From: Scenedesmus sp. PABB004
Taxonomy: Eukaryota
Assembly (NCBI GenBank): GCA_014905635.1
Contig: CM026548.1
Span: 372,001-436,000, forward strand
DNA length: 64,000 nt
Direction: 5' to 3'
Positions 32,472 through 61,691 of the stretch are shown here, in pieces. How positions within the stretch are numbered: position 1 is the first letter of the stretch; every line of letters begins with the position of its first letter. The translations under genes and the position numbers were made by a program. The notes below the pieces were generated by a model, which did no database searches, was not told the origin of the DNA, and saw only the letters and a program-made list of their open reading frames with translations.

Positions 32472-33482
32472 ATGGCGGAGGAGGAGCAGCAGTTCGAGGA
32501 GGCGTATGAGGAGGGCGACGGCATGGACACCGGCGATGCGGGCGCAGAGGGCGAGGACAACACAGACGTGAGGCGGGGGGCAGCCCCGGGCACGAGACCG
32601 GGGGCATCCGGCCGGCGCTGCGGCAGCCGCAGCCGCAGCCGCAGCCGCAGCCGCCGGACGCGCGGCAGCGCCGCCGCCGCCGCCGCCGCTGCTGCTGCTG
32701 CTCGCGCCGCGCGGCCCCGGCGCACGGCTGCAGCCGCCTCAGCCGTGCCTGGCGCGCCCCGCGCAGGAGCTGGAGGCGATGAAGCAAAAGCTCAAAGAGC
32801 TGGAGGAGGAGGCGGCCAAGCTGCGCAGCACGCAGGTGCGCGGCCGGGTCGCAACTCGGCGCCGGCTGCAGCGGCGGCCGCGGCGGCCGCGGCGGCAGAG
32901 AGCGCGGCGGCGGCGGCGGCGGCGGCAGCGAGCGCGCAGCCCAGCGGCGCGCCCGCCCCGCGCCCGCCCGCCGCAGGCCGGCGGCGCCGAGGCGGAGGCG
33001 GAGGAGGAGGCCGCGCCCGAGGCGGGCAGCAAGGAGGAGGCCGACTCGCGCAGCGTGTTCGTAAACAACGTGGACTGGGGCGCGACGCCGGAGGAGCTGC
33101 AGCAGCACTTTGCGAGCTGCGGCACCGTCAACCGCGTGACGATCCTCACCGACAAGTTCGGCAACCCCAAGGCGCGCCGCCGGCGCGGGCCAGCCCGCCC
33201 CCGACCCGCGCGCGCCGCCGCCGCCGCGCGCGGCGCCCTCACGGCGGGTTGCCGCCGCGCCGCGGCTGCCGCGCTTCAGGGCTTTGCGTACGTGGAGTTC
33301 CTGGAGGCGGACGCGGTGGACAATGCGATCATGCAGGACAACAGCGAGCTGCGGGGCCGCCAGATCAGGGCGAGCGCCGCGGCGCTCGGGGCTGGGCTGG
33401 GCGCCGCGGGGCTGTGACGGGCGGGGCGCTGGGCGCTGGGCGCTGGGCGCTGGGCGTGCACGCGGCGCGCCGACGTCGCCGC

Positions 33483-34027: not shown

Positions 34028-34367
34028 GCCGGCAGCGGCGGCGCTGCTGGGACAGGCAGCGGCGCGGCGGGCGGCGGCGCGGCGGCAGCGGCGGGGCTGG
34101 CGAACCCGGGACCCGGCGTGTGAAGCGCGGCGCCCCGCGATCGGCCGGCCGCCGCTCCTGTGCCCGCCCCGCGCCCTCCCCCGCCCGCACGTTCCCTGAC
34201 GAGCCGACGCCGGGACGAACGCAGCGCGGGGCAGTCCCGAAAGCAGCAGCCGCGCGCGCCTGCCAGCACCCGCTCGCAGCGCGCTCGCGGCGCGCCCGCG
34301 TCGGTCTTCCGTCATGCGCCGCGACGCTATGAAGGCCCTGGCATGAGCCGGGTGCCCCACGGCGGCC

Positions 34368-37300
34368 ATGCGCGGCACCGCGCCGGCCATCGCAGCCGTC
34401 GCGTATCTGCTGCTCCTCTCGGCCGCGCCGGCGGTCGCGGGCGCGGCCTGCGATGCCGGGTGCCGATCTGAGCAGCGTGATGCGCTGCTGGCGCTCTATG
34501 ACGCCACGGGCGGGCCGTGGTGGGCGCGGCAGGCGGGCTGGGCGCCCCCCGGGCCCGACCACTGCGCCTGGGAGGGCGTGGCCTGCTGCAACGCCTCCGG
34601 CACGGCCTGCCCGCTGCCTGGCGGCGTGGCGGCGCTCGCGCTGGCGGCGAACAACCTGACCGGCGCGTGGCCGGCGGCGCAGCTCGGCCGCCTCCGCGCC
34701 GGCCTCGCGGCGGTGGAGCTGGGCGGCAACCGCCTCGCCGGGCGCTGGGACTCGCGGCTGGGGTCGCTCACCCGCCTGCGCGCGCTGGGCGCGGAGGGCA
34801 ACGCGCTGTCGGGGCCGCTGCCGCCCGAGCTCGGCGCGCTGTCGGAGCTGGCGGCCCTGCGCGGCGGCGGCAACCGCTTCGCCGGCCCGCTGCCCGCGGC
34901 CCTGGGCGGCCTGAGAGCGCTGCGCGTGCTCGCGCTGGACGGCAACGCCCTCACCGGGGGCGTGCCGCCGGCGCTGTGGGCGCTGCCGGCGCTGAGCAGC
35001 GTGGCGCTGCAGGGCAACCGCCTCTCCGGCGAGCTCGCGCCGCCGCCCGGGGCGGCCGGCGGGCCGGCGGCGGCGGTGCGGACGCGCTGGGCGCGCTGGC
35101 AGGTGCGCGCGCGGGGTTGCTGGCGCGGCGCGGGGCGGCCGCCGCAGCGGCGGCAGCGGCGGCGCCGCGCGCGCGCCGCCAGCATCACCGCGCCGCGCCC
35201 GGCCGACGCGCGGCGCCCCGCAGAGCCGGCGCCGGCGATGGAGGAGGTGCTGCTGGCCCGCAACCGCCTCACCGGGAGCCTGCCGGCCTGGCTGGCCGCG
35301 CTGCCGGTGCGGACGCTGGACGCGAGCAGCAACGCGCTCAGCGGCAGCCTGCCGCCCGAGCTCGGCCGCAACACCGCGCTGCGGCAGCTGCTGCTCAGCA
35401 ACAACAGCCTCACCGGCACCCTGGCGGCCGACATGCTCAGGTGGGCGGCAGGCAGGGCGGCAGGCGGAGCTGTGGCGGCGAAGCACGGGCGGCGCGGCGG
35501 CGCCCGCCCGCCGCCGCCCGCCGACCGTCCGCGCCCGCCGCCGCGCCCGCAGCCCCAACCTGCGCGTGCTGGACCTCTCGCGCAACCGGCTGACCGGCTC
35601 GCTGCCGCCGGGGACTGGTGGACTGGCCAGCCTGCGGCTGCTGGACGCACGCGACAACGGCCTGGAGCTGGCGGGCGGGCTGCCGGCGTTCCTGGCGGTT
35701 GACAGGTGCGGCCGCTCGCCGCGCCGCCGCCGCCGGCGCGGCCGCGCAGGCAGCGGCGCCGCCGCGTGCCGGCCGCCGACGCGGCGCCGGCCGCCGCCGC
35801 CGCCCGCTGCGCGTCGCAGCTCGGCGGCCGCGGAGCCGGCAGACCCCGTGGGCGAGCCCGGGCTCATGTGCCACCCGCTCAGCCTGGTCGGCAGCCCTGG
35901 CTCGGCAGTGCTGCTCGACCCCAGCAGCTACGGCGGCGCCGGCTGCTTCTGCGCCGCGCCGTTTGCACCCGCGGGCGGCGGCGGCGGGCCGGCGTGCGCG
36001 CTGCCGGGCGCGGCGCGCGGGCCGCGCCTCGCGGCCATTGTCGCCCCGCTCGCAGTGGCGCTGGGCCTCGCGCTCGCCGCGCTCGCGTGCGTCGTGACGG
36101 CGTGGCGCTGCGGGCTGACGGGGCTGGTGCAGCGCATCACGGTTGAGAGTGAGAAGAAGGCGCCGCCCGGCGGCGCGGCCAAGGACGTGACGCTCGTGCT
36201 CACAGACGTCCAGGCGCGCGGCGCGCGCGGCGCGGGCGGTGGAGGGAGGGGCAGCGACGCTTGCAGCCTCACGCGCCGCCGCCGCCGGGCGCCGCGCGCG
36301 CGCGCAGGGCTCAACCGAGCTGTGGGAGTGGGACTCGGCGCTCGCGAGCGACGCGTTCAAGCTGCACGACCGCATCCTGCGGCACTACATGACCCTCTTC
36401 TTTGGCTACGAGGCGCGTGCGGCGCAGGGGCTCAGACGGGGTTCAGTCGGGGTTCAGGAGGGGCTCAGCGGGGGTTAAGGAGGGGTTCAGCGGCGCTCAA
36501 GGGTTTGGGGATCTCCGGCGACCCGGGGAGGGAGGCTCACGGGGGTGGAGGCAGGGCGTGTGTGCGGCGCGCGGGGCGCCGCCCACGCGCGGCCGCGCGG
36601 TGTGCGCTGCGCAGGTCTCCACCGAGGGCGACGCGTTCCTGGTGGCCTTCCACGAGCCCTTTGACGCTGTCGCGTGGTGCCTCTGCGTCCAGCTCGCGCT
36701 GCACCGTGAGCGGCGGCGGGGGGGAGAGGGCAGGGAGCGTCTGCGCGGCGCCGGAGGCCTGGCGCCGGCGCGGCGCGGCGCGCCGACGGGGGCCGGCCGC
36801 CCCGCCGCGCCGCGCCGCGCCGCGCAGACGCGGACTGGCCGGAGCCGCTGCTGCTGCACAAGACGACGTGCACCGACACGGCGGAGAGCCTGGAGGCCAA
36901 GCGCCGGCACCGCCAGGACCGCTGGCAGAGCCGCATGAGCGGCAACGACGGCGGCGCCGGCAGCCGCCGCATGTCGCGGGCGAGCCAGAGTGCATTCGCC
37001 AGCGGCGGCGGCACGCAGAGCGGCGCCGGGGGCGGCGGCGACGGCGAGCCGCCCGCCGGCGGCTGGGGCGCGGCCGGCGGGGACGCGCTGCCACCGGCGC
37101 CGCTCGTGGCGGCCGACCACGACGGCAGCGTGTTTGGCGGCGACGCCGGCGACGGCAGCAGCGACGGCGACATGGAGGCGCGCATGGCGGCGGCCTACGC
37201 GACAGCGAGCAACAGCAACAACAGCAACCAGGCGCGCGCGCGCGCGCGCGCGCTACGGGTGGTCCCCGGCGCTCGGCGTCGCCGCGCGCTGGCCCACGCG

Positions 37301-38088
37301 CTCGGCCGCACCGCGCGCCGGCCCACATGCTCCGCGCGCCGCGCCCGCGCCGCGCAGGGCGTCGACCGCGCCGTGCTGTTCCGCGGCCTGCGCGTGCGCA
37401 TGTCCATCGCGACCGGCGGCGTCGACAGCGTGCGCCTGCACAGCATCACGCAGCGCGCGGAGTACGTCGGCGAGGTGCTGCGCAAGGTGCAGGCCGTCGG
37501 CGAGACGCCGCAGGGCGGCCAGGTGCGCGGCGCTGCGGGGGGAGGCCGGCGCCGGGCCGGCGGCGCGGCGCGCCGCGGCCTCAGCCGTCCGGCCCCGGGA
37601 GGGCTGCTGATTCAAGTTTGAATGAACAAGTCGAACCGCGCGGCGCCCCGCCAGGTCGTCATGGACAGTGACACCTTTCGCGGCATCAACGCGCGCCTGC
37701 CCGAGCTCGGCGGCGTGGTGCTGGAGGCGACGCAGAAGCTGCTGCGCCGCCTCGGCGGCGCCGCGGCGGCCGACCTCGCGGCGATGCTCGGCCAGCCGCT
37801 CCCGGCCGAGGCGCCCCCTGTGACCAACGAGGGTGCGGCGCGCGCCGCTGCTGCTGCGCGGCGGCGGCGGCGGGGCCGGGCGACGGGCGCGCCGCGCCAT
37901 GCCACGCCGCGCTGAGGCGCCTGCGCTGCCTGCGTGCGCCGCAGCCTGGCTGCGGCGCAGCCTGCAGCTCGACCGCCAGAGCTTCCTGGGCCAGCAAGAG
38001 CAGCAGCGGCCGGCGCAGCAGCAGCCGGTGCAGCAGCAGCATCAGCAGCAGCAGGCGCAGGCACTGCCTGTGCAGCCGCTGGCGTCGC

Positions 38089-38152
<64 letters not shown>

Positions 38153-41100
38153 GCGCCAGCCCCGCCAGCCCCGCCAGCCCCGCCAGCCCCGCCAGCCCGG
38201 CAGCAGCGGCGGCGGCGCCGTCGGCGTCAACCCGGACGCGCTCACAGCAGCAATGACCGCGCACGGCCTGGTGCGGTGGGACGGCACCGTCGCGGGCGGG
38301 CGCAGCGCAGGGGGCAACGTCCCCGCCGGCGGCGGCGCCGCCGCGGGGAGCGCCGAGCCGGGCGGCGGCGCCGCGGCGCCGGACGAGGGCGCCGCAGGCA
38401 GCAGCCTGCTCAACCCCTACGGCGGCGGCGACATCGAGCAGGGGCGCCGCTCGCTGGGGCCCTCGCCCGCGCCGCCGCCGCCGCCGCCTCCGCCAGCGAC
38501 GGCTTCGCTGCAGCGGCGCAGGTGGGCCGCGTGGCGCGCCCCCGCGCTGCGCCGCTGCGTTGCGCGCCTGCGCGCGCGTCGCGGTGCCGCCGTTCGCGCA
38601 CCGGCGGGCCAGCTCACGCCGCCGCCCGTCCCCGCGCTGCACAGCCTGCTGGGCAAGGCCGTGGAGGTGCTCGGCCTGCGCCGGCCGGCCGGCGACGACA
38701 GCGTGAGCGCCAGCCACGACAGCGTCACCGCCGACCCCGACGCCGGCGACGCCCCGGGCGCAGGCGACGGCAGCACCGCGGCGCTCGCGGCCTTTGCCCG
38801 GTCCGGCGGCGCGCCGCTGCTGCCCTGGCCGCCGCTGCCGCGCCGCCCGGCGGCGGCGCGGCGCGGCGCCGCGCGCCGCCCCGGCGGCGTCGCCAGCTCG
38901 GCGCGGCGGCGCAGCAGCCTGTCGTACGGCGCGATGGTCATTGACATGGGCGTGCACCAGCTGACCGGCCTGCCGCAGAAGGTCAACCTCGTGCAGGTGC
39001 GCCAGCGCCGCGCCAGCGCCGCCCGGCGCCAGCGCTGCGCGGCGGCGCCGGCAGGGCGTGGCGGCCGGGCTTGCCGCGCGACCGCCGCCGCGCCGCCGCC
39101 GCCGTGCCGCGCGCGCGCCGCGCGCCGCGCGCGCGCAGGTGATGCCGTGCGGGCTGGAGGACCGCGCGCGCTTCTTCGCGCGCCTCGACTCGCTCCGCCA
39201 GGAGACGCCCGGCTACTTTGACGCGCCCGCGGCCGGCCTCGTCCCGCTCGCGCCCGGCGGCGGCGGCGCGGGCCCGCCCGGCGGCATGCCCGGCGTGTCG
39301 ATCGTGTTTTGCACCATCGACAAGTGCGCCGCGTCGCGCGCCGCGCCGGCGCGGCCCCCGCGCCCAGCTGCCAGCTGCTGCGGCACACAGCTGCGGCGCG
39401 GCCGCGCCGACCCGCCGCTGGCCCGCCGCCGACCCGCCGCCGCGCCCGTGCACTCCAGGTACCCGGAGCTGCTCGAGGCCAACCGCCCCGCCGCGGAGCT
39501 CGCGCTCGAGCTGTACAGCGACGCGGTGCGCTGGCTGCTGCTCGTGGGCGGCGGCTACGAGTGCCAGGAGGCGGAGGGGACGTTCATGGTCGCGTTCTCC
39601 TCGCCAGACGTGGGCATCGAGTGGTGCCTCATGGTGCAGCAGGTGCTGCGAGACATGTCCTGGCCGCCGAGGTGACGGCGCGCGCGCCGCGACGCCGGCG
39701 GCGGCGCTGGTGGGAGCGCGCGCCGGGAGCGCGCGCCGCACGCACGCTCACGCCGCGCCCCGCCCCGCGCTCGTGCCGCGCTCGTGCCGCACCCGGCCCG
39801 CGCAGCGTGCTGGAGCTGCCGACGTGCGAGGAGGAGCGGGACATGCACGGCGCGGTGATGTTCCGGGGGCCGCGCGTGAAGATGGGCGTGTATGCGGGCA
39901 CGCCCACGCGCGTCGTGCCGCACACCACCACCGGCCGCGCCGACTACTTCGGCCCGCTGGTGCGCCGCGCGCGGCGCAGCTCGCCGCGGCCGCGGCCGCC
40001 GCCCCGCCCGCGCGCGCGCGGCGGCCGCCGCCGCCGCCGCCGCCCTGACAAGGCCGCGCCCGCCCCGCACACCCGCGCGCGCGCGCAGGTCAACCGCGCG
40101 GCGCGCTACTGCCACGCCGCGGCGCGCGGCGGGCAGGTGCTCGTGCCCAAGGAGCTCATGTGCGAGGTGATCAGCAAGTGGGTGATGATCGACCCCGTGG
40201 AGCTGGCGCAGAGCGACCGCCTGCTCGAGCTTGCCGCCTTCTTTGACGAGGAGCGCCGCCTCTGGCCGTGGATGTTCAAGCGGCGCAGCCACTGGGACGT
40301 GCCGCTGCCGCGGCACCTCTACGCGCCGCCGCCGCCGCCGCCCGCGCCGGCCGACGGCGGCGGCGCTGGCAGCGGCGGGCCGGCCAGCGCGGCGGCGGTG
40401 GCGGCGGCGACGCCGCGCCGCTCGTCGGGGTTGAGGTGGCAGGGCAGCGACGACTCGGCGGCGGCGCCGCCGGACGCGGCGCCCGGGGCCGCCGCCTCGC
40501 GCAGCGGCAGCGGCAGCCTGCGGCGCGCGCTCGCGGGGCTCGGCCTCGCCACCCCGGCGCCCGGCCCTCACAGCAGCGGCACGAGCTCGGCCGCGCCGGC
40601 CGCTGCGGGCGGCGACGGCGAGGCGTGGCCGCCCGGCGAGCCGGGCGGCGAGGGCTCGCACCACCCGAGCCTGCCGGAGCGCGGCTCGGGGCGGCTCGCG
40701 CCGCTGCACGAGACGGCCGAGACGGGCAGCAGCAAGTGCCCGAGCGAGCTGGGGACGACCGAGTCCAACGCCCTGCACCGCGAGGCCGGTGGCGGCCAGG
40801 CCGGTCCGGGCGCCGGCGTGGGCGGCGGTGCCGGCGCCGGCGGGGCGCAGGCGCCGCCGCTGCTCGCGCCGGCGGCGGTGCTGCACGCGTTTGCGACCGC
40901 ACAGGCGCGGCGCCACTCAGACCTCGCGCAGGCCTACAGCCGCATGGGCCCCGCGGCGCTGCACGCGCTGCAGCTGCAGTACGCGGCGGCGATGGCCGGC
41001 GGCGGCGCGCTGCCCGCGGCCGGCGCGCTCGCGGGCCTCGGCGGCGGCGGCGGTGGCCTCGGCCTCGGCGCCGCGCAGCCGCTCGGCGGCGGCACGCCCA

Positions 41101-44100
41101 TCCCAGCGTCGCTCTACTTCCAGCCGCCGCCGATGCTCGCGCGCGCCGGCAGCGGCAGCGGCAGCGGCACGGGCGGGCCGGCGGGCGCCGACGGCGGCGG
41201 GCTCGCGGCCGCGTGGCCGGGGCCGCGCTACCGGCGGCCCAGCTACGTGTCGGACGTCTCGGCGCGCTACCGGCGGTCGAGCAACATCAGCGACAGCGCC
41301 GGCACCGGCGCCGACCTCACGAGCGCCGGCAGCCGCCGCCCCTCGGCGCTCTCGGACTTCTTCCCCGTCGGCGGCAGCCTCAGCGGCGGCGGCGGCGGCA
41401 GCCGGCGGCCGTCCAACCTTTCGCAATACCTCCTGCTGGACGAGGGCCAGCCCGGCTGGCCGGCGCTGGTGCCCGACTCGCCCGGCCTCGCGGCGGGCGG
41501 CGGCGGCGCCGGCGGCGCGCTCGCGGGCGGCGCGCGCGGCGGTGAGGCGGCGCGCGGGCCGGCGGGCCCGCCGCACGCGCCGGCGGCGGCGCTCCAGCTG
41601 CAGCGCCCCGCGTCGGTCGCGAGCGACGCCTCGGCCGGCGCCTGGCACCTGGGGCCGGGTCGGGGCGGCTACGCGGCGCCCCCGCCCCGGGCGGCGACGG
41701 CAGCCGGCGCAGGGGCCAGGCGGCCGCACGGTACGCGGCGGCGCAGCAGGGGCACCCGCGGCCGGGCGACGCGGGCGCGGCGGCGGCCGCGGACGCGGCG
41801 GCCGCAGCGGCTGCCGCCGCGGCCGGCTCCGGCCCGGGCAGCGGCGGGCACCCGTCGTCCACGCTGCAGAGCAGCAGCACCGGCGGCAGCCGCAGCAGCG
41901 CCGGCCGCGGCGGCGCCGGCGGCGCGCCGGCCGCTCCGCCCGCGGCGCAGCTCATGCAGGGCCTGGAGAGCCAGGTCGTGCCCGGCATGCTGCACAGCAG
42001 CAACCGGCTGCGCCTCGTGAGCAAGCGGCGGCGGCAGATGAGCTACTGCTACTTCCAGGAGTCTAGCCAGCCGGGCATCCCCGCCGACGGCGCCGACCCG
42101 CGGCGCCTGCTGCCGCCGGGGTTCTCGCACTCGAGCGCCGGCACGCCCGGCGGCCTGCCGCCGCTGGCGAGCCACTACGCGGGCAGCGACGCCGGCGCGA
42201 GCACGGCCGCGGGGCCGGGCAGCGTGGCGGGCTCGCTCGCGCCGGCCGGCGCCGGGCGCGGGGCGGGCGGGGGGCCGCCCAGCGCAGACAGCGCCGCGCT
42301 GGGCAGCGGCGGCGCCAGCGCCGCCGGCACCAGCGCCGGCGAGTCGGTCGACTCGGGGGTCGCGCTGCAGGCGGGCCTCGCGGCCGCGGCCGGCGCCGGC
42401 GCCGACGGAGCCGCGCTGCCCCTGCCGCCGCCGGCAGTGGCAACCCCGCGGGCAGCGGCGGCGGCGCGGCCGCGCCCGGCGGCGCGGCCGAGCCACAGCT
42501 GAGCCACGGCAGCTGGCAGCCGGGCGGCAGCGCCAGCACCGGCGCCGGCGCCGGCGCCGCCGCGGCGGCAGGCGCGCGCGGCGGCGGCGCGCTGGTGGAC
42601 GACTACTGCGGCCTTCCTGAGATCGACCCGCTGCCTGACGTGGATGTGCTGGAGAGCCTGCGGCTCGCCGTGCCGCAGCCGCGCTGGCACCGCCCGAGCA
42701 ACGTGTCCAGCCTCGCGACCGGCACGGGCGAGAGCGTGGCGGGCTTTGAGGGCGCGAGCATCGGCAACATGTGCGCCGACATCATGCGCGGGCGCTGGCT
42801 GTGGATCGGGGAGCTGCTGGTGCACGACCTCGGCCAGTTCAGGTGCGGTGCACGCGCACGCGCGGCGCGCGCCGCCGGCTGCGCGCCCGGCCGCCTGTGA
42901 CGCGCGGGCGCCGCGGGCCCCCACGCGCGCCCCGCCCCGCCCCGCCCCGCCGCCGCCGCGCGCAGGTTCAAGGGCGTCGCCGGCGTGCACTCGATCGTGA
43001 GCGTTACGAGCGAGGAGCTCGGCGGCCGCACCTTCCCGACCACGATCCGGCGCGGCAAGGGCGAGCAGGTCCGGCTCGGCCGCGGCCTGCTGGCGCTGGT
43101 GCAGATGCTGGCGCGGCCGCGGCCGTCGAGCTGGGGCGGGCCGTACCTGGGGCAGCAGCTGCTGCAGAGCCCCGCGCCCACGCCGGGGCCGGAGGGCGTG
43201 TCGTTCCTGCCGCAGCCGCTGCCCGGCAGCGCGGTGTGCGCGGCGTGCGGCAGCGGCGGCTCGGGCCCGGCCAGCGACGAGCTCGCGCAGCCGGCGGGCG
43301 ACGCCGGCGCCGGCCTCGCCGACCCGCGGCAGCAGGCCGCGCTGCTGCACGGCGCGGCGCCGCTCGCGGGCTGGCCGGCGGCGCGGCGGGGCCGCCGCAC
43401 GGCGGCGCCTGGCCCGCCGGCGCGCGCTGGCAGTCGCGGCCGGCGTCGGTGGAGCAGCAGCGCCACGTCGTGCGCGTCAGCTCGCTCGGCGACCTCGGCG
43501 ACGTGCGCTTGGGCGCGCTGCCCGAGCTCGCCGCGCTGCTGCCGGCGCACGGCGGGCTGCACGGCCTCACGCACCACAGGTCCGCGCCGGAGGCTGACGT
43601 CGCCCACGCGGCGGCGGCCGCGGGCGGCGCGCGCGGGTCGCTGCTGCTGCCGCCCCACCTCACCTGGCAGCAGCAGCTCGCGGCGGGCACGTGGGCGGCG
43701 CAGCAGGCGGCGCAGGCGCAGCGCCGCCGCCGCCGGCACAGCGTGTGCGTGGGCAGCGTGAGCCACCGCCTGTGGTCGCGGCCGTACGGCGTGATGGACG
43801 AGCTTCAGCCTTTTGAGGAGAGCGATGAGTGGCTCTTCCAGGCCGCGCAGGCCTCGCAGCGCGCCGAAAGCTCGCGCGCGTCGTCCGCGCTCGACCACGC
43901 GCAGCCCTGCGCCGGCGCGGGCGCGGGCGGCGCGCCCGCCGCCGCGCCCGCGGCGCGGGCGGCGCCACGGTCGCCGCTGGCGGGCGCGGCGGCGCCCAGC
44001 GGCAGCGCCGGCGACGCGGCGGGCGGCGGCGCGGCGGACGACGTGGCGCGCGCCCCCGACCTGGAAGGCTCGGAGGCCTGCTCGGAGCCTGCCGCTCACG

Positions 44101-44174
44101 CCGGCGGCAGCTGCAGCAGCGCCGGGGGCGGCAGCGGCAAGGGCCGGGCGCTGAGCGACAGCGCTGCGGCGTGA
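34368..44174 (+). CDS. LRR receptor-type protein with two class III nucleotide cyclase domains; three apparent frameshifts in the 3' part
   Basis: Signal peptide, LRRNT (ALLALYDATGG..W..HCAWEGVAC) and plant-type LRRs (NxLSGxLPxELG). TM at ~36030-36105. Cyclase 1: VTLVLTDVQGSTELWE..VSTEGDAFLVAF..FRGLRVRM. Cyclase 2: GYECQEAEGTFMVAF..FRGPRVKMG..DYFGPLVNRAAR..GGQVL..DLGQFRFKG. Confidence 0.88.
38091..38196 (+). repeat. (CAG)20 polyglutamine tract followed by about five 9-bp PRQ repeats, inside the cyclase gene
   Basis: Visible directly in the sequence. Confidence 0.95.

Positions 44175-44220: not shown

Positions 44221-44306
<86 letters not shown>
44221..44306. repeat. (GT)43 microsatellite
   Basis: Perfect dinucleotide run starting 46 nt after the cyclase gene stop. 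Confidence 0.98.
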
Positions 44307-44309
<3 letters not shown>

Positions 44310-45039
44310 CGTGTGGGCTCCTGGCCCGCCTGGCCCTCGGCTGCCGCGACGACCTTGGCCCCGGGGGCGCGTGATTGGGTGCGCGCCCTCGCGGCCGCAG
44401 GCGGTCGGTTTTCAGTGAAGCTGTGCGGCGAATTGTTCCGTTTCGTGAGAACTGCGTTCGGTGGTTGGCGTTTTGATTTGGCCGGGGGCTCGCGCGGCGC
44501 GCGCGCGGCGTCGCGCCCCGCCGCACTGCCTCGCTAATGCTTGGTCGGAGACGCAAGCACGTCGCGTGGGGCGGATTACCGGTGCACACACACACGCTTT
44601 TCTACACCTGTTTCTTCGTGCAGGACGCTGGAGATTGGATTGGGGCTCTCGCAGCGCGCGCGCGTGGCGGCGCCGGCAGGCGCCCGCGTTGCCTCCACGC
44701 TTTGCGACGCGCGGTCGCGGGCTTTTCGACCGCTTTGGAGGGCAACGTGCACGCCCGCATGCACTGGCGCGCGCGTGCAGCGCCAGTAAAAGCAGGCACC
44801 CGTGCGCGGCGCGCGCCGCAGCGCGGCAGCCGACCAATCGCGCCGGCCGTCGCGCAGCGCGGCCGCCAGGGCTTACGCCGCCGCCCACGCCCTGTGCCGC
44901 CGAGGAGAGACCGCTCGTCGCAGAGAGCTCCCCGCCGACCTGCAGCGCCGAACCCGCCGCTGCTCGCGCGCGCAGCGCCGCCGGGCATGCGCGCCGCCAC
45001 GGCGCGCAGCTGAGTCGCCGGGCTCGGGCACAGCTGACC

Positions 45040-55304: not shown

Positions 55305-57236
55305 TCACGGCACGGCCTTGCTGGGGTCCTTCACCGTGCCCTGCGCGGCGCGGCCGGGACCGGGCGCGGCCGTCAGCGCCGGCCGTGCCGCTGCGCCGCG
55401 CCGCGCGCGCGCAGCGCCGCGCCGTCCTGCCGCCCCGGCCAGCACCATACCGACCTGGAACAGCACGGCGCCGCTGGGCTCGTCGACGAGTACGAAGAGG
55501 AAGGGTCGGTTGAACACCAGCGGCGGCGTGGAGGGCTCGACGAACGACGTCGTCGTCATGACCACGCTCGTCACCGCGGCCGCCTCGGTGCCGCGCTCGT
55601 CGACGAGCACCACCGACTGCGCGCGGCGGCGGCGGCGGAGGCGGCGGCGGCGGCGGCGGTGGCGAGGAGGGTCGGGCCGCGTCGGCGCGGCGCGGCGGGC
55701 GCAGCGCCGGGCGCTGCCGGCCGGGCGCTGCCGGCCGGGCGCGGCCGGCGGGCGCGGCGCACCGACTGCACGACCGAGGTGATGAACAGCGCCTCTGGCG
55801 ACATGCGGCTGAAGTTGGCGGCGTCCGGGTCGAACGCCGCCGTCACGCCGAGCGCGCGCAGCGCCGCGCCGAGCGGGAGCTGCTCCGCGCGGACCTTGAA
55901 GCGCGGCAGCTGCAGCGTGAGCGACCCGAGCGCGGCCACGCTGCGCCAGGCCGAGCCGTTGAGCAGCGGGCCGAGGCCGATGCCCGCCGCGGCCGCGTCG
56001 GCGTTGAGGCCGTACTTTGCCTCGTCGGGCAGCACCGCGATCGCGACCACGCCGGTCCCGCGGTACGGCAGCTTGACGGCGCGGTACTGCCCCGCCGCCT
56101 CGGCGTACGCGACGTTGCCGCCGGCGTTGATGTCGCGCGGCTCAAAGCGGCGGTACATCATGTCCACAGCCACCGTCTGCCGCGCAGGGGGTGCAGGGCG
56201 GAGCGGGCGCGGAGCGGCGGCGCGCGGCGGCGGGGTGGCGAGTGAGCGCGAGCGGGGCGCCGCCCCCGCCGGGCAGGGCCGGGGCCGGGCCTCCCCGCGC
56301 GGCGGCGGCGTGCATGCGCGCGCGCGCACCGCGGCCTTGCCGCCCGGGCCCGCGACGGAGAACGGCCGCTTGCTCGTGGTGTCGGGGTCAAACGCGTAGA
56401 CCCAGGATGACTTGAAGTAGACTGCGCGGCGCCGTTGGGTGGTCGGGTGGGCGGCTTGCGCGAGCCGCGCGGCTTGCTCGAGCCGGCCGGCTGTGCCCGC
56501 GCGAGCCAGCCCGCGCGGCGGGGGCGCCGGGGCCCTGGCGGCGCGCCGGCCCTGCAGGGTTCATGGTTCCCTGCCCCGTCGGTCGCTCACTCACCGGCGT
56601 TGGTGACGATGAGGTTGAACTCGGTGCCGGGGGGCACCGCCTGCGTGATGCGGCCGCCCGTCTTGGCCGCCGCCCAGGCGTTGATCGGCGTCGTGTCGTT
56701 GACCGCCTTGACCGGCGTTTTGAAGGTCGCCCACATGCGCTCGCCAAACGCCTTGTTCACCGCGAGGCGGCGCGTCCAGACGCCGTTGGCGATGCCCAGC
56801 TCGGTGCCGTTTGCGGTTCCAGGGGATTGCAGCAGGCCCGCGACGAGCGCCGCCGCGCGCGCGTTGAGCGACGCCTCCGCCGCCGCCCAGCCGCCCGCCG
56901 TGAGGTTGGCGGGCGGCCCGCCGCCGCTCGGCGGCGCGAGCGCCGCCCACAGCTGCTGCTGCGTGCTGCTGAGCGGGCCTGCGGCGGCGCCGGCGGCGGC
57001 GGGCGCGGTTGGCGGCGGGCGGCGACCGCCAGCTGCCGCCGGCGGGTGACGCCGCCGAGCCGCCAAACTGACCGCCCCGTGACGCCGCTCTCACCGGCTC
57101 CGTTCAGCACGATGACCAGTGCCAACCACACCGAGAGCGGGCTGACGAACGCGCCGGCTGGCAGGCCTGCGAGGGCCCCCGACTTGAGCAGCTCCCGATA
57201 GAGAGCCGCGCCGAACGCCACGGCCGCGTCAGACAT
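55305..57236 (-). CDS. Serpin with inhibitory-type hinge and no signal peptide
   Basis: FVSPLSV, INAWAAAKTGGRI, TNA|VYFKSSW, LPRFKV, VDERGTEAAAVT and FNRPFLFVL motifs. Five introns. Minus-strand TGTAA at 55127-55131. Confidence 0.95.
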
Positions 57237-60207: not shown

Positions 60208-61691
60208 CCATCCGTGTAGCAGCAGGCACCAGTCAAGCGCAGCAGCGGCAGGGGCAGCAGCATGGGCAGCATCAGGGGCAGCAGGCGGCGCGCCCGGCGG
60301 CGCGCCTGGCGTCGCGAGCGGCGGGCTCACCGTCGGCCCGCTCAGCGGCGACGACGCGGGCGGCGACGCGGGCTGCGAGTGGGTGCCGCCGGACCCGGAG
60401 CTCGGGCGCGTGAGCTACCGCCTGTTGGTCGCCTACGACGGCACCGCCTACTCGGGCTGGCAGCTCCAGCCGGGCCGCGCGCGGACGATCCAGGTGCGCC
60501 GAGGCGCGGCTGCTCGCGCGCCCCACGCGCCCGCGCCGCGCCGCGGCTGCGCGCTCACTCGCGCGCCGCGCATCGCCGCGCTGCCAGGGCGAGTTTGAGC
60601 GCGTGCTGGGCACGGCGCTACAGGAGGGCCGGCGCACGCTGTGCGTGTGCGCGGCGGGCCGCACCGACGCGGGCGTGCACGCGCGCGGGCAGGTGGTGCA
60701 GTTTTACAGCAACGCGGCGTCCCTCGACCCCGCGTGGCTGCCGGGCAAGCTCAACAGCATGCTGCCGCACGACGTGCGCGTGCTCTGGGCGGCGCGCACG
60801 GCGCCCGACTTCAGCGTCACCGTGTCGGCGCTGCGCAAGGTGCGGGCGGGCCGCTGCTGCGCCGTCGGAGCTCACCGCTCCTGAGAGCGCGGCGCGGCGC
60901 GGCGCGGGGCGGGGCGCGCGCCGGGCAGAGCCCTCAGCGCTGGCAGGGTTTTATGATGACGAGCACCCTCCAAAACCCCGCCGCGCCGCCGGCAGACGTA
61001 CCACTATGCCGTGGACGTCGGCGCCGCGCACGACCCGCTGCGCCACCGCTTTGCCACGCACGCGCGCCGCGCGCTCGACGTGCCCGCGATGCGCGCCGGC
61101 GCGGCGCTGCTGGTCGGCACGCACGACTTCACGCAGTTCAGCAACGCCGCGCCCGAGCGCCTGCGGCGCAACCCGGTGAAGCGGCTCGAGGCGCTGGACG
61201 TGGTCGACGACGGCCCCGCCGGCCTGCGCCTCGAGGCGCGCGCCGTGCGCCGCGGCGCCGCGCGGGGCGCCGTCCGGGCGGGGCCGCGCGCGCCCGCGCC
61301 GCGCGGGGCGCGCCCGCCCTCGGACCCCGCGTTGACGCGCCCGCCGCCGCAGGTCACGGGGAGCGGTTTCCTGTACAAGCAGGTCCGCCACATGGCGGGC
61401 GCGCTGCTCGCGCTCGGCGAGGGCCGGCTGGGCCTCGACGCCATCGCTGCGCGGCTCGCACTCGGCGCCGCGAGCCCGCCGGGCGCGGGCGGGGTGTGGC
61501 GGGGGTACAACGTCGCGCCCGCCAAGGGCCTGTGCCTCGTGCGCGTCGAGTACCCGCCCGCCGTGGACGACCCGGGCGCGCTGCTTTATCCGGAGCGGCC
61601 GCACGACGCGCACGGCCGCCTGCTGCACCGCGCGCGCGCCGGCGCGGGCGGCAGCGCGGGCGGCAGCACCGACGCCGACGACGAGGACTGA
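60208..61691 (+). CDS. truA: tRNA pseudouridine synthase A family protein; start unresolved
   Basis: VAYDGTAYSGWQLQ, AGRTDAGVHARGQV, GTHDFTQF, GSGFLYKQVRHMAG and APAKGLCL motifs. Three internal introns, one GC-AG. No in-frame ATG after the TMEM42-like stop. Confidence 0.92.

Follow-up and report, generated by a model that had tools for sequence, protein, structure and literature searches.

The DNA analysed here is a 64,000-nucleotide stretch of the genome of Scenedesmus sp. PABB004 (assembly GCA_014905635.1, contig CM026548.1, positions 372,001 to 436,000 of the forward strand), referred to below as the window; all coordinates are positions within it. Its plus strand carries a gene that starts at an ATG at 34368 and whose last block conserved with homologues ends at about 43131. 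The gene appears to encode a signal-peptide-like N-terminus, an ectodomain of plant-type leucine-rich repeats (LRRs), one transmembrane (TM) helix and two class III cyclase homology domains (CHD1 and CHD2), each of which lacks catalytic residues that the other keeps.

The locus and its gene model

The G+C content of the window is about 80% throughout, and 87 open reading frames (ORFs) of at least 80 amino acids lie between 33.0 and 44.5 kb. Because such a composition leaves long open stretches in every frame, an ORF by itself is uninformative here. The gene model was based on the periodicity of G+C over codon positions, on splice sites read from the DNA and on colinearity with homologous proteins. 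The coding strand is the plus strand, on which the exonic codon positions run mid, low and very high in G+C (periodicity of G+C at the third codon position, GC3).

Exons 1 to 3 (34368-35102, 35226-35440 and 35553-35705) were delimited by splice sites read from the DNA. Exon 4 (35820-36213) is one open frame and was aligned to residues 288-495 of P0001, a homologous protein of Trebouxia. Exons 5 (36308-36412) and 6 (36615-36705) were placed by tblastn and are followed by exons 7 (36828-37522), 8 (37655-37832), 9 (37945-38996), 10 (39139-39323), 11 (39459-39671) and 12 (39806-39959). Exon 13 runs from 40089 to a putative downstream border, and the last exon opens at 42966, after an intron at 42843-42965. 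A frameshift at 35040-35102, prompted by a second-frame match to the LRR consensus, was considered and rejected, since frame m0 stays open when the donor at 35103 is joined to the acceptor AG at 35224-35225, and m0 is also the frame that GC3 favours.

The 12 introns that were checked are 94-202 nt long and share the consensus CAG/GTGCGC ... GCGCAG/G (slashes mark splice junctions here and below). GC donors occur at 36214 (CAG/GCGCGC) and 36413 (GAG/GCGCGT), for the introns 36214-36307 and 36413-36614, both of which are positioned by nearly family-invariant motifs on either side. A third possible GC-AG intron, in frame and 126 nt long, lies at 37232-37357 in the CHD1 insert, and introns of the GC-AG type may be more frequent than usual in a genome so rich in G+C. 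Inside CHD2, removal of an in-frame intron at 39324-39458 (135 nt) gives the 22-residue spacing found in P0001.

CHD2 also contains a very long low-complexity insert at 40191-42768, which shows GC3 periodicity and offers frame-consistent GT/GC-AG options. The coding frame shifts twice within this stretch (m0 to m2 to m1), at about 41.5-42.6 kb. A splice-site weight matrix derived from the 12 introns of the gene gave no high-scoring introns that would account for the frame changes at 41.7, 42.4 and 43.35 kb, and relaxed thresholds gave weak frame-consistent options for them. One splice path yields a 16-exon open model of 2417 amino acids with a single terminal stop at 43761, in which exons 13-15 and the 3' end are guesses. 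In that model the last two CHD2 strands are displaced downstream by about 2.6 kb (about 750 residues) from the rest of the domain, and the intervening sequence is rich in Ala, Gly, Pro and Ser and coding-like by GC3. A possible non-conserved C-terminal tail occupies 43132-43761, where the frame is open to the stop at the putative 3' end, GC3 is 1.00 as far as about 43330 and tblastn found no homologue match. The original prediction had given the gene an extent of 34368 to 43100; the start stands, and coding-like sequence may continue past the proposed end.

A plant-type LRR ectodomain and a single transmembrane helix

The start codon opens a signal-peptide-like hydrophobic N-terminus of about 26 residues (34368-34445), with a maximum Kyte-Doolittle (KD) hydropathy of 2.02 in 19-residue windows starting at residues 5-10. 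The LRR ectodomain spans exons 1-3 (34368-35705) and comprises an LRRNT Cys motif and about ten plant-type 24-residue LRRs, with ten N-x-L-x-G cores spaced about 24 residues apart. Pfam recognised LRRNT_2 (2.3e-4), LRR_1, LRR_8 and LRR_4 on the first ORF piece. A PDB search with the exon-1 stretch (34368-35075) matched 134 distinct sequences at E<=1e-3, among them the ectodomains of the plant LRR receptor kinases GSO1 (5.4e-96), MIK2 (5.2e-80) and FLS2 (8.6e-79). The sole other strongly hydrophobic segment of the protein, at about residues 437-463 (maximum KD 2.59), is the TM helix (about 36025-36105).

No Pkinase match was found in 12 plus-strand ORF pieces over 34347-44174 (E<=0.1) or in nine long minus-strand ORFs, and no kinase family is listed for the homologues. 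Pfam detected neither PP2C nor any other domain in the plus-strand ORF pieces. A signal peptide, a plant-type LRR ectodomain, one TM segment and the absence of a kinase had all been part of the original prediction, and each was recovered in this analysis.

Evidence for a single gene

A single frame of exon 4 leads from the Cys-rich end of the ectodomain through the TM helix and a 13-residue spacer to the first strand of CHD1, which bears the first metal-binding Asp. The receptor-cyclase fusion is thus independent of any splice call. P0001 was shown by tblastn to be colinear with the locus from 34470 to 43131 (E = 4e-24 for the LRRs, 5e-20 and 3e-18 for CHD2 exons), and three further homologues match only this locus within the window (four genera, same order). 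Residues 23-587 of the spliced model align with P0013 of Volvox reticuliferus in one high-scoring segment pair (2e-75). Residues 1176-1418, which cover the last CHD1 strands, the linker and CHD2, likewise align with homologues in a single segment pair (3e-72, 50% identity). Six chlorophycean homologues span the last intron, and their tblastn matches cease at 43092-43131. When metagenomes were scanned for close genomic relatives, a single locus was found, the 1731-nt contig L001, in which the middle and end of CHD1, the linker and all of CHD2 form one uninterrupted ORF of 505 amino acids. This tandem (L001 1-1518, plus strand) is compact, intron-free and of moderate G+C, with short loops and an ORF open at its 5' end.

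An annotation artefact, joining an LRR receptor-like gene to a neighbouring cyclase gene, would produce a similar model, as would a decaying pseudogene in which frameshifts at 41.5-42.6 kb truncate CHD2. The frame changes near 41.7, 42.4 and 43.35 kb, which come without well-scoring splice sites, are what such an explanation would expect. However, the LRR end, TM helix and CHD1 start share an exon, and single homologous proteins from more than 15 named species span everything in the same order. All three frames are open across the junction zones, where frame-consistent introns exist, and the plus-strand GC3 periodicity persists through the 41.5-42.6 kb stretch. The C-terminal block of CHD2 is intact, with 30-33% identity to six homologues by tblastn across the intron and 46-49% identity to P0023 and P0027 once spliced. 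The nine long minus-strand ORFs across the locus gave no Pfam match. Artefact or decay is considered highly improbable, and the sequence comparisons support the LRRs, the TM helix and the tandem cyclase as parts of one gene.

Two complementary half-domains

Key catalytic columns were first scored with block profiles from P0001 in every fetched protein. Residue counts below refer to alignment A2, whose 47 rows (46 family members and the window model) were chosen as already showing the pattern, the LRR paralogues P0012, P0017 and P0019 (CHD2 without Asn/Arg) being excluded. Residue identities in A2 are anchored on an ungapped HMMER alignment (1e-7) of P0001 CHD2 with the solved trypanosome cyclase GRESAG4.3 (PDB 1fx4). 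In this alignment Ala and Gly face the metal-binding Asp pair, Gln faces the base-specifying Lys, and Asp, Asn and Arg are matched.

The N-terminal half of CHD1 lies in exons 5 and 6 (36308-36705), which show 43-71% identity to P0001, P0015, P0023 and P0025 by tblastn. Its middle part, in exons 7 and 8 (36828-37832), was placed by homologue alignment and consists of a low-complexity insert and then the block FRGLRVRM...EYVGEVLRKVQAV...GGQ/VVMDSDTF. Exon 9 (37945-38996), placed in the same way, holds a long disordered insert and then the last CHD1 strands, with VIDMGVHQLTG at about 38925-38996. The loop between the CHD1 core and these strands contains an (AGC) array of about 51 copies that encodes poly-Gln (37999-38151), followed by a 9-nt repeat of 5.7 copies encoding Pro-Arg-Gln units (to 38198).

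In the spliced translation CHD1 is marked by the motifs TLVLTDVQ/GSTELWEW, VSTEGDAF and AEYVGEVLRKVQAV, which precede the first motif of CHD2. The first metal-binding Asp (codon 36205-36207) is Asp in 44 of the 47 rows and the second (36630-36632) in 45. The strand-4 Arg, present in the window, is found in every row (47/47). The residues of the substrate side are missing from this domain: the Asn position is Arg in the window (Asn in 2/47), the Arg position is Ala (Arg in 0/47), the strand-7 Lys position is Thr (Lys in 9/47) and the Lys position at 36618-36620 is Ser. The key columns of the middle block read E, R and A in the window.

CHD1 and CHD2 are joined by a conserved linker of 51 residues, VMPCGLEDRARFF...PGYFDAP (39139-39288), whose junction is fixed by residues 871-872 of P0001. 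The CHD2 core (39289-40190) was placed by homologue alignment; exon 10 carries the linker and the start of the domain, and exons 11 to 13 continue it. Its motifs are VFCTIDK, GGYECQEAEGTF and ADYFGPL/VNRAAR. The last CHD2 strands (42769-43131), HDLGQF/RFKGVAG at 42800-43000, are split by the intron 42843-42965 and were placed with the six chlorophycean homologues.

CHD2 shows the reverse residue pattern. The two metal positions are Thr (39313-39315) and Gly (39577-39579) in the window, and neither is Asp in any of the 47 rows. The Asp (39942-39944), the Asn (40092-40094) and the Arg (40104-40106) are each kept in 45 rows, and the strand-7 Lys (42970-42972) is Lys in 39, with 7 gaps. At the position of the base-specifying Lys (39565-39567) the window has Gln, as do 45 of the 47 rows. 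The canonical base-specifying pairs are Lys-Asp/Thr for ATP and Glu-Cys/Ser for GTP; CHD2 instead has Gln-Asp, which was found in 54 of 71 Asn/Arg-only domains, a few relatives having Lys-Asp or Glu-Ala.

These counts agree with the original prediction, which had described a first domain with both Asp residues and without the Asn/Arg pair, a second domain with the opposite pattern, and Gln where the base-specifying Lys is expected. Three of its motif readings were refined. The CTID motif is present, and the in-frame intron 39324-39458 follows it. The second metal position, read in "EGT", does lack Asp, but the residue is Gly and not Thr. The motif DYFGPLVNRAAR is also present, but it is broken by the intron 39960-40088.

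Conservation and evolution across the family

The pattern was also counted, without prior selection for it, in 86 proteins that have two or more complete domains. The order "metal-only then Asn/Arg-only" was found in 61 of the 86, "neither then Asn/Arg-only" in 7 and "metal-only then neither" in 4, and 14 were multi-domain or mixed. Together with the 47-row alignment, this tally bears out the predicted complementary halves in C1-then-C2 order, and on sequence grounds complementary loss of catalytic residues is a family trait. The would-be second site is freely variable, with three exceptions: in CHD1 a Glu (33/47) and an Ala (35/47), and in CHD2 a Gly (45/47).

Could the tandem be a pseudo-enzyme, with two inactive sites and a CHD pair that provides the LRR receptor with a nucleotide-binding or scaffolding output? 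Each domain alone is catalytically incomplete, Gln stands in place of the canonical Lys or Glu, and dead versions do arise, as seen in the loss of CHD2 Asn/Arg in P0012, P0017 and P0019 and in the four "metal-only then neither" proteins. Yet the seven catalytic residues of one composite site are kept in 39-47 of the 47 rows, whereas residues of the other site drift (A, T, S, G and others at the CHD2 Asp 1 position; R, Q, E, T and others at the CHD1 Asn position). Conservation of one site while the other is free to vary is a signature of selection on one working site, and a pseudo-enzyme is regarded as quite unlikely. The three LRR-tandem paralogues, from Myrmecia and Trebouxia, have CHD2 key columns AAR, MGK and SSG and, judged by these residues, probably represent catalytically dead receptors, encoded in genomes that also contain active-looking copies.

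Sequence searches found relatives in four chlorophyte classes (Trebouxiophyceae, Chlorophyceae, Pedinophyceae and that of Bryopsis), often in several copies per genome. A word-index search gave 642 proteins at E<=1e-5 among 7999 scored, and 30 of the best 46 of these 642 have LRR Pfam families together with or beside Guanylate_cyc. Named sources are Trebouxia, Myrmecia, Symbiochloris, Apatococcus, Volvox, Gonium, Tetradesmus, Chlamydomonas sp. UWO 241, C. eustigma, Pedinophyceae and Bryopsis, with additional LRR-bearing rows from Edaphochlamys, Micractinium, Monoraphidium and Trebouxia sp. A1-2. The relatives carry the database names "hypothetical", "guanylate cyclase domain-containing" or "adenylate cyclase". 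P0024 of Volvox africanus bears the UniRef name "non-specific serine/threonine protein kinase", and the families listed for it are only LRR and Guanylate_cyc; the name was likely transferred from LRR receptor kinases.

The Pfam family PF00211 was detected in homologues colinear with the window (P0001, 2.4e-9; P0003, 3.2e-9; P0023, 1.8e-11; P0200, two stretches). Coverage is patchy, with CHD1 only detected in P0001, P0003 and P0023, CHD2 only in P0015 and both in P0200, which may explain why annotation does not reveal the tandem nature. An exhaustive HMMER search with the window CHD2 exon gave 329 representatives at E<=1e-3 in 1.84 billion proteins. Among 34 long representatives that were scanned, LRRs were found in 9, and in others PDEase, p25-alpha or GAF domains are joined to the tandem. 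Across all searches, proteins of these kinds are P0036 and P0169 (PDEase), P0172 and P0194 (p25-alpha) and P0173 (GAF). The tandem also occurs in P0043 of Mesostigma, with a periplasmic-binding domain, and in P0045, of the ammonium transporter family; the Mesostigma proteins have Glu-Ala at the base positions. Judged by its domain contexts, the tandem of a metal half and a Gln/Asp-Asn-Arg half is a portable output module. The ESM Atlas gave weak leads to bacterial Guanylate_cyc fragments and nothing stronger.

A tree built by a quick method from 109 domains and 126 columns groups 36 of 37 CHD1s in one starred set (99) and 36 of 37 CHD2s in another (97). The window CHD1 and CHD2 each adjoin those of Tetradesmus P0023 and Volvox proteins. 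Once four long rows are removed, the D1/D2/other labels can be explained by just 2 changes, the lowest number possible. A clade uniting CHD1 and CHD2 is not rejected (p-AU 0.77). The tree thus indicates that the split into metal and substrate halves is old and that the pair evolved as a unit.

Neighbouring sequence

Beyond the conserved end of the protein, 43380-44174 shows plus-strand coding-like periodicity in another frame, with no Pfam match and no match to 12 homologues; it could belong to a separate gene or represent additional C-terminal exons. Immediately downstream of the locus, at 44221-44315, there is a (GT) microsatellite of 47.5 copies. Elsewhere in the window, Pfam identified an RRM_1 protein (32572-33417, plus strand, 1.8e-9), a serpin piece (55574-56560, minus strand, 3.7e-18) and a tRNA pseudouridine synthase piece (60960-61688, plus strand, 4.1e-15), which are ordinary nuclear genes.

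Proposed mechanism

The protein is read as a single-pass type I receptor in which an LRR sensor controls one composite cyclase site formed by CHD1 and CHD2; taken as a whole, this reading is judged fairly probable. The order would be signal peptide, extracellular plant-type LRRs, one TM helix, a short spacer of fixed length and the cytosolic CHD1-CHD2 tandem. CHD1 would contribute the two metal-binding Asp residues and the strand-4 Arg. CHD2 would contribute the base-contacting Gln and Asp, the ribose- and transition-state-contacting Asn and Arg, and the phosphate-contacting Lys.

In class III cyclases, which act as head-to-tail dimers, the metal ligands come from one subunit and the base, ribose and phosphate contacts from the other, as described in the accessible portions of three sources (PMC6027212, PMC3475452, PMC2576301). 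By this logic the protein can form exactly one competent site. Arranged head to tail, CHD1 and CHD2 would create a single competent site for nucleotide cyclisation alongside a degenerate pseudo-site, as in C1-C2 of the mammalian transmembrane adenylyl cyclases (tmACs) and soluble adenylyl cyclase (sAC).

Most probably the two domains would pair within one chain, through the linker of about 50 residues. Linker length is 34-89 residues (median about 50) across the 47 rows, with an occupancy of 0.98 and a top-residue frequency of 0.53, and its conservation equals that of the catalytic blocks, whereas the intradomain loops differ by hundreds of residues. Intrachain pairing is favoured because the linker is conserved and constrained in length while these loops vary. 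The composite site might instead form between chains, from CHD1 of one receptor and CHD2 of a second, with ligand-induced dimerisation of the LRRs as the on-switch. Plant LRR receptors are commonly dimeric, and the long disordered inserts in both window domains would permit domain swapping. The same mechanism has been proposed for single-CHD receptor cyclases, in that CHD dimerisation activates trypanosome receptor adenylyl cyclases and animal receptor guanylyl cyclases (excerpts of PMC6027212). However, the linker is short, constrained in length and conserved on a par with the catalytic blocks, as would suit a fixed intramolecular tether, and the known tandem forms, tmAC and sAC, pair within the chain (PMC3475452, in its accessible part). 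Pairing between chains is considered unlikely.

For the intrachain receptor, the receptor-like topology suggests gating by a ligand. Binding to the LRRs would act through the TM helix and the spacer on CHD1, alter the CHD1-CHD2 geometry and so change the output of cAMP or cGMP. Most rows have a spacer of 12 residues from the TM helix to CHD1 (13 in the window protein), which suggests tight mechanical coupling and not a long helical transducer. As to the predicted activity and its product, we lean towards ATP as substrate, with relaxed specificity.

Several points weigh against this reading. Two or three introns of the model require GC donors, and CHD2 is interrupted by a 2.6-kb low-complexity stretch within which the candidate splice sites score poorly. 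The separate window CHD exons gave no Pfam match, so that the class III membership of the window protein rests on tblastn and blastp colinearity. The rows of A2 were selected, as stated above. No characterised counterpart of the Gln-Asp pair was encountered, and no activity data for any family member were found in the literature. The TM helix and CHD1 are not connected by a helical signalling element of the kind found in tmACs or receptor guanylyl cyclases, and the mechanism of coupling is a guess.

Comparison with known systems

In catalytic design the protein parallels tmAC and sAC (ADCY10), which also have two CHDs per polypeptide, complementary loss of residues and the metal half first. 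The differences lie in what surrounds the catalytic pair. In tmACs two six-TM bundles and a helical stalk take the place of the LRR ectodomain and single TM helix seen here, and sAC has no TM helix and has domains after C2, in a long regulatory C-terminus, none of which occur here. The base residues of tmAC and sAC are Lys-Asp or Lys-Thr, in contrast to the Gln-Asp pair of this protein, and its catalytic domains are nearest by sequence to those of trypanosome cyclases. Both tmAC and sAC have been described as carrying C1 and C2 on one chain as a pseudo-heterodimer (accessible text of PMC3475452), and the tmAC heterodimer as having one active and one non-functional site (accessible text of PMC2576301).

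The trypanosomatid receptor adenylyl cyclases (ESAG4/GRESAG4; PDB 1fx2, 1fx4) provide the closest solved CHDs, matched by P0001 CHD1 (5.2e-12), P0001 CHD2 (1e-7) and the L001 ORF in the CHD1 middle block (8.6e-6). They share the type I topology, with one TM helix between a large ectodomain and a cytosolic CHD, and differ in having a Venus-flytrap ectodomain and one complete, homodimerising CHD where LRRs and two incomplete CHDs are found here (both from the available part of PMC6027212).

The receptor guanylyl cyclases of animals (GC-A, GC-C, RetGC) are likewise single-pass receptors with a cytosolic class III output, from which the present protein differs in its LRR ectodomain, its two incomplete CHDs and the absence of a kinase-like region from the ORF pieces searched. 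In the animal proteins an ANF-receptor-type ectodomain is combined with a kinase-homology domain and a single CHD that works as a homodimer (covered in part by PMC6027212).

The ectodomain resembles those of the plant LRR receptor kinases GSO1, FLS2, MIK2, PEPR1 and BRI1 in its LRRNT and 24-residue plant LRRs, and the protein differs from them in having no kinase domain. The idea of a cNMP-making (cyclic nucleotide-making) LRR receptor has been put forward for AtBRI1, BdPepR2 and PpERL1, to go by excerpts of the literature. The guanylyl cyclase centres proposed in plant kinases are short embedded motifs, in contrast to the canonical class III fold found here.

Fungal Cyr1 (LRR, PP2C and CHD) also combines LRRs and a class III CHD in one protein, and a Cyr1-type protein, P0052 (LRR, PP2C, Guanylate_cyc), was among the matches, with a single complete CHD of the DKD/DNR pattern. 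In Cyr1 the LRRs are cytosolic, neither a signal peptide nor a TM helix is known, and LRRs and CHD are separated by a PP2C domain. Here no PP2C match was found, the LRRs follow a signal-like N-terminus and precede a TM helix, and the cyclase is a complementary tandem.

The proposal that the family includes the long-sought gamete flagellar adenylyl cyclase of Chlamydomonas was considered and is not supported, as no C. reinhardtii member was among the matches listed. The candidate currently in print for that enzyme is CYA18, a K-channel cyclase (accessible text of PMC9561859).

Significance

Proteins of this family are already in public databases under generic names. In the present protein a receptor-type cyclase and a predicted C1/C2 pseudo-heterodimer are united behind an LRR ectodomain of plant type. 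A full-text search, whose coverage did not extend to supplements and subscription journals, found no paper describing an LRR-TM-cyclase or a complementary algal tandem. The word "cyclase" does not occur in a 2026 survey of chlorophyte receptor kinases (PMC12757656) or in PMC12712428, and no description of an LRR-TM-cyclase was found in the accessible parts of PMC11355073 and PMC12223298.

A wider conjecture, unlikely as a whole, is that the LRR-cyclases are a large receptor family, the chlorophyte counterpart of the land-plant LRR receptor kinases, and turn extracellular peptide or glycan cues directly into a cyclic nucleotide. The Gln-Asp pair might then confer a preference that is neither adenylyl nor guanylyl (dual ATP/GTP or pyrimidine), and the remnants of the degenerate site (CHD1 Glu and Ala, CHD2 Gly) might form an allosteric pocket, like the forskolin site of tmAC and the bicarbonate site of sAC. 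In a mycobacterial cyclase a Gln-Asn pair reportedly permits guanylyl side activity (available excerpt of bioRxiv 10.1101/2024.03.06.583649); the primary paper on it is reportedly that of Castro et al. from 2005.

The nearly invariant Gln-Asp pair is, from the alignments, a candidate mode of substrate selection. With one working and one spare site in a single-pass receptor, the C1/C2 design offers a simple model for TM control of a pre-assembled catalytic dimer, and it could provide a single-chain scaffold for ligand-controlled production of cyclic nucleotides. Land plants sense their surroundings largely via LRR receptor kinases. To our knowledge, no canonical class III cyclase is accepted in land plants, and the production of cyclic nucleotides by their LRR receptors is debated. 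By its sequence, the gene described here is an unambiguous class III cyclase coupled directly to a plant-type LRR ectodomain, which suggests that the green lineage linked the same sensor to two different outputs.

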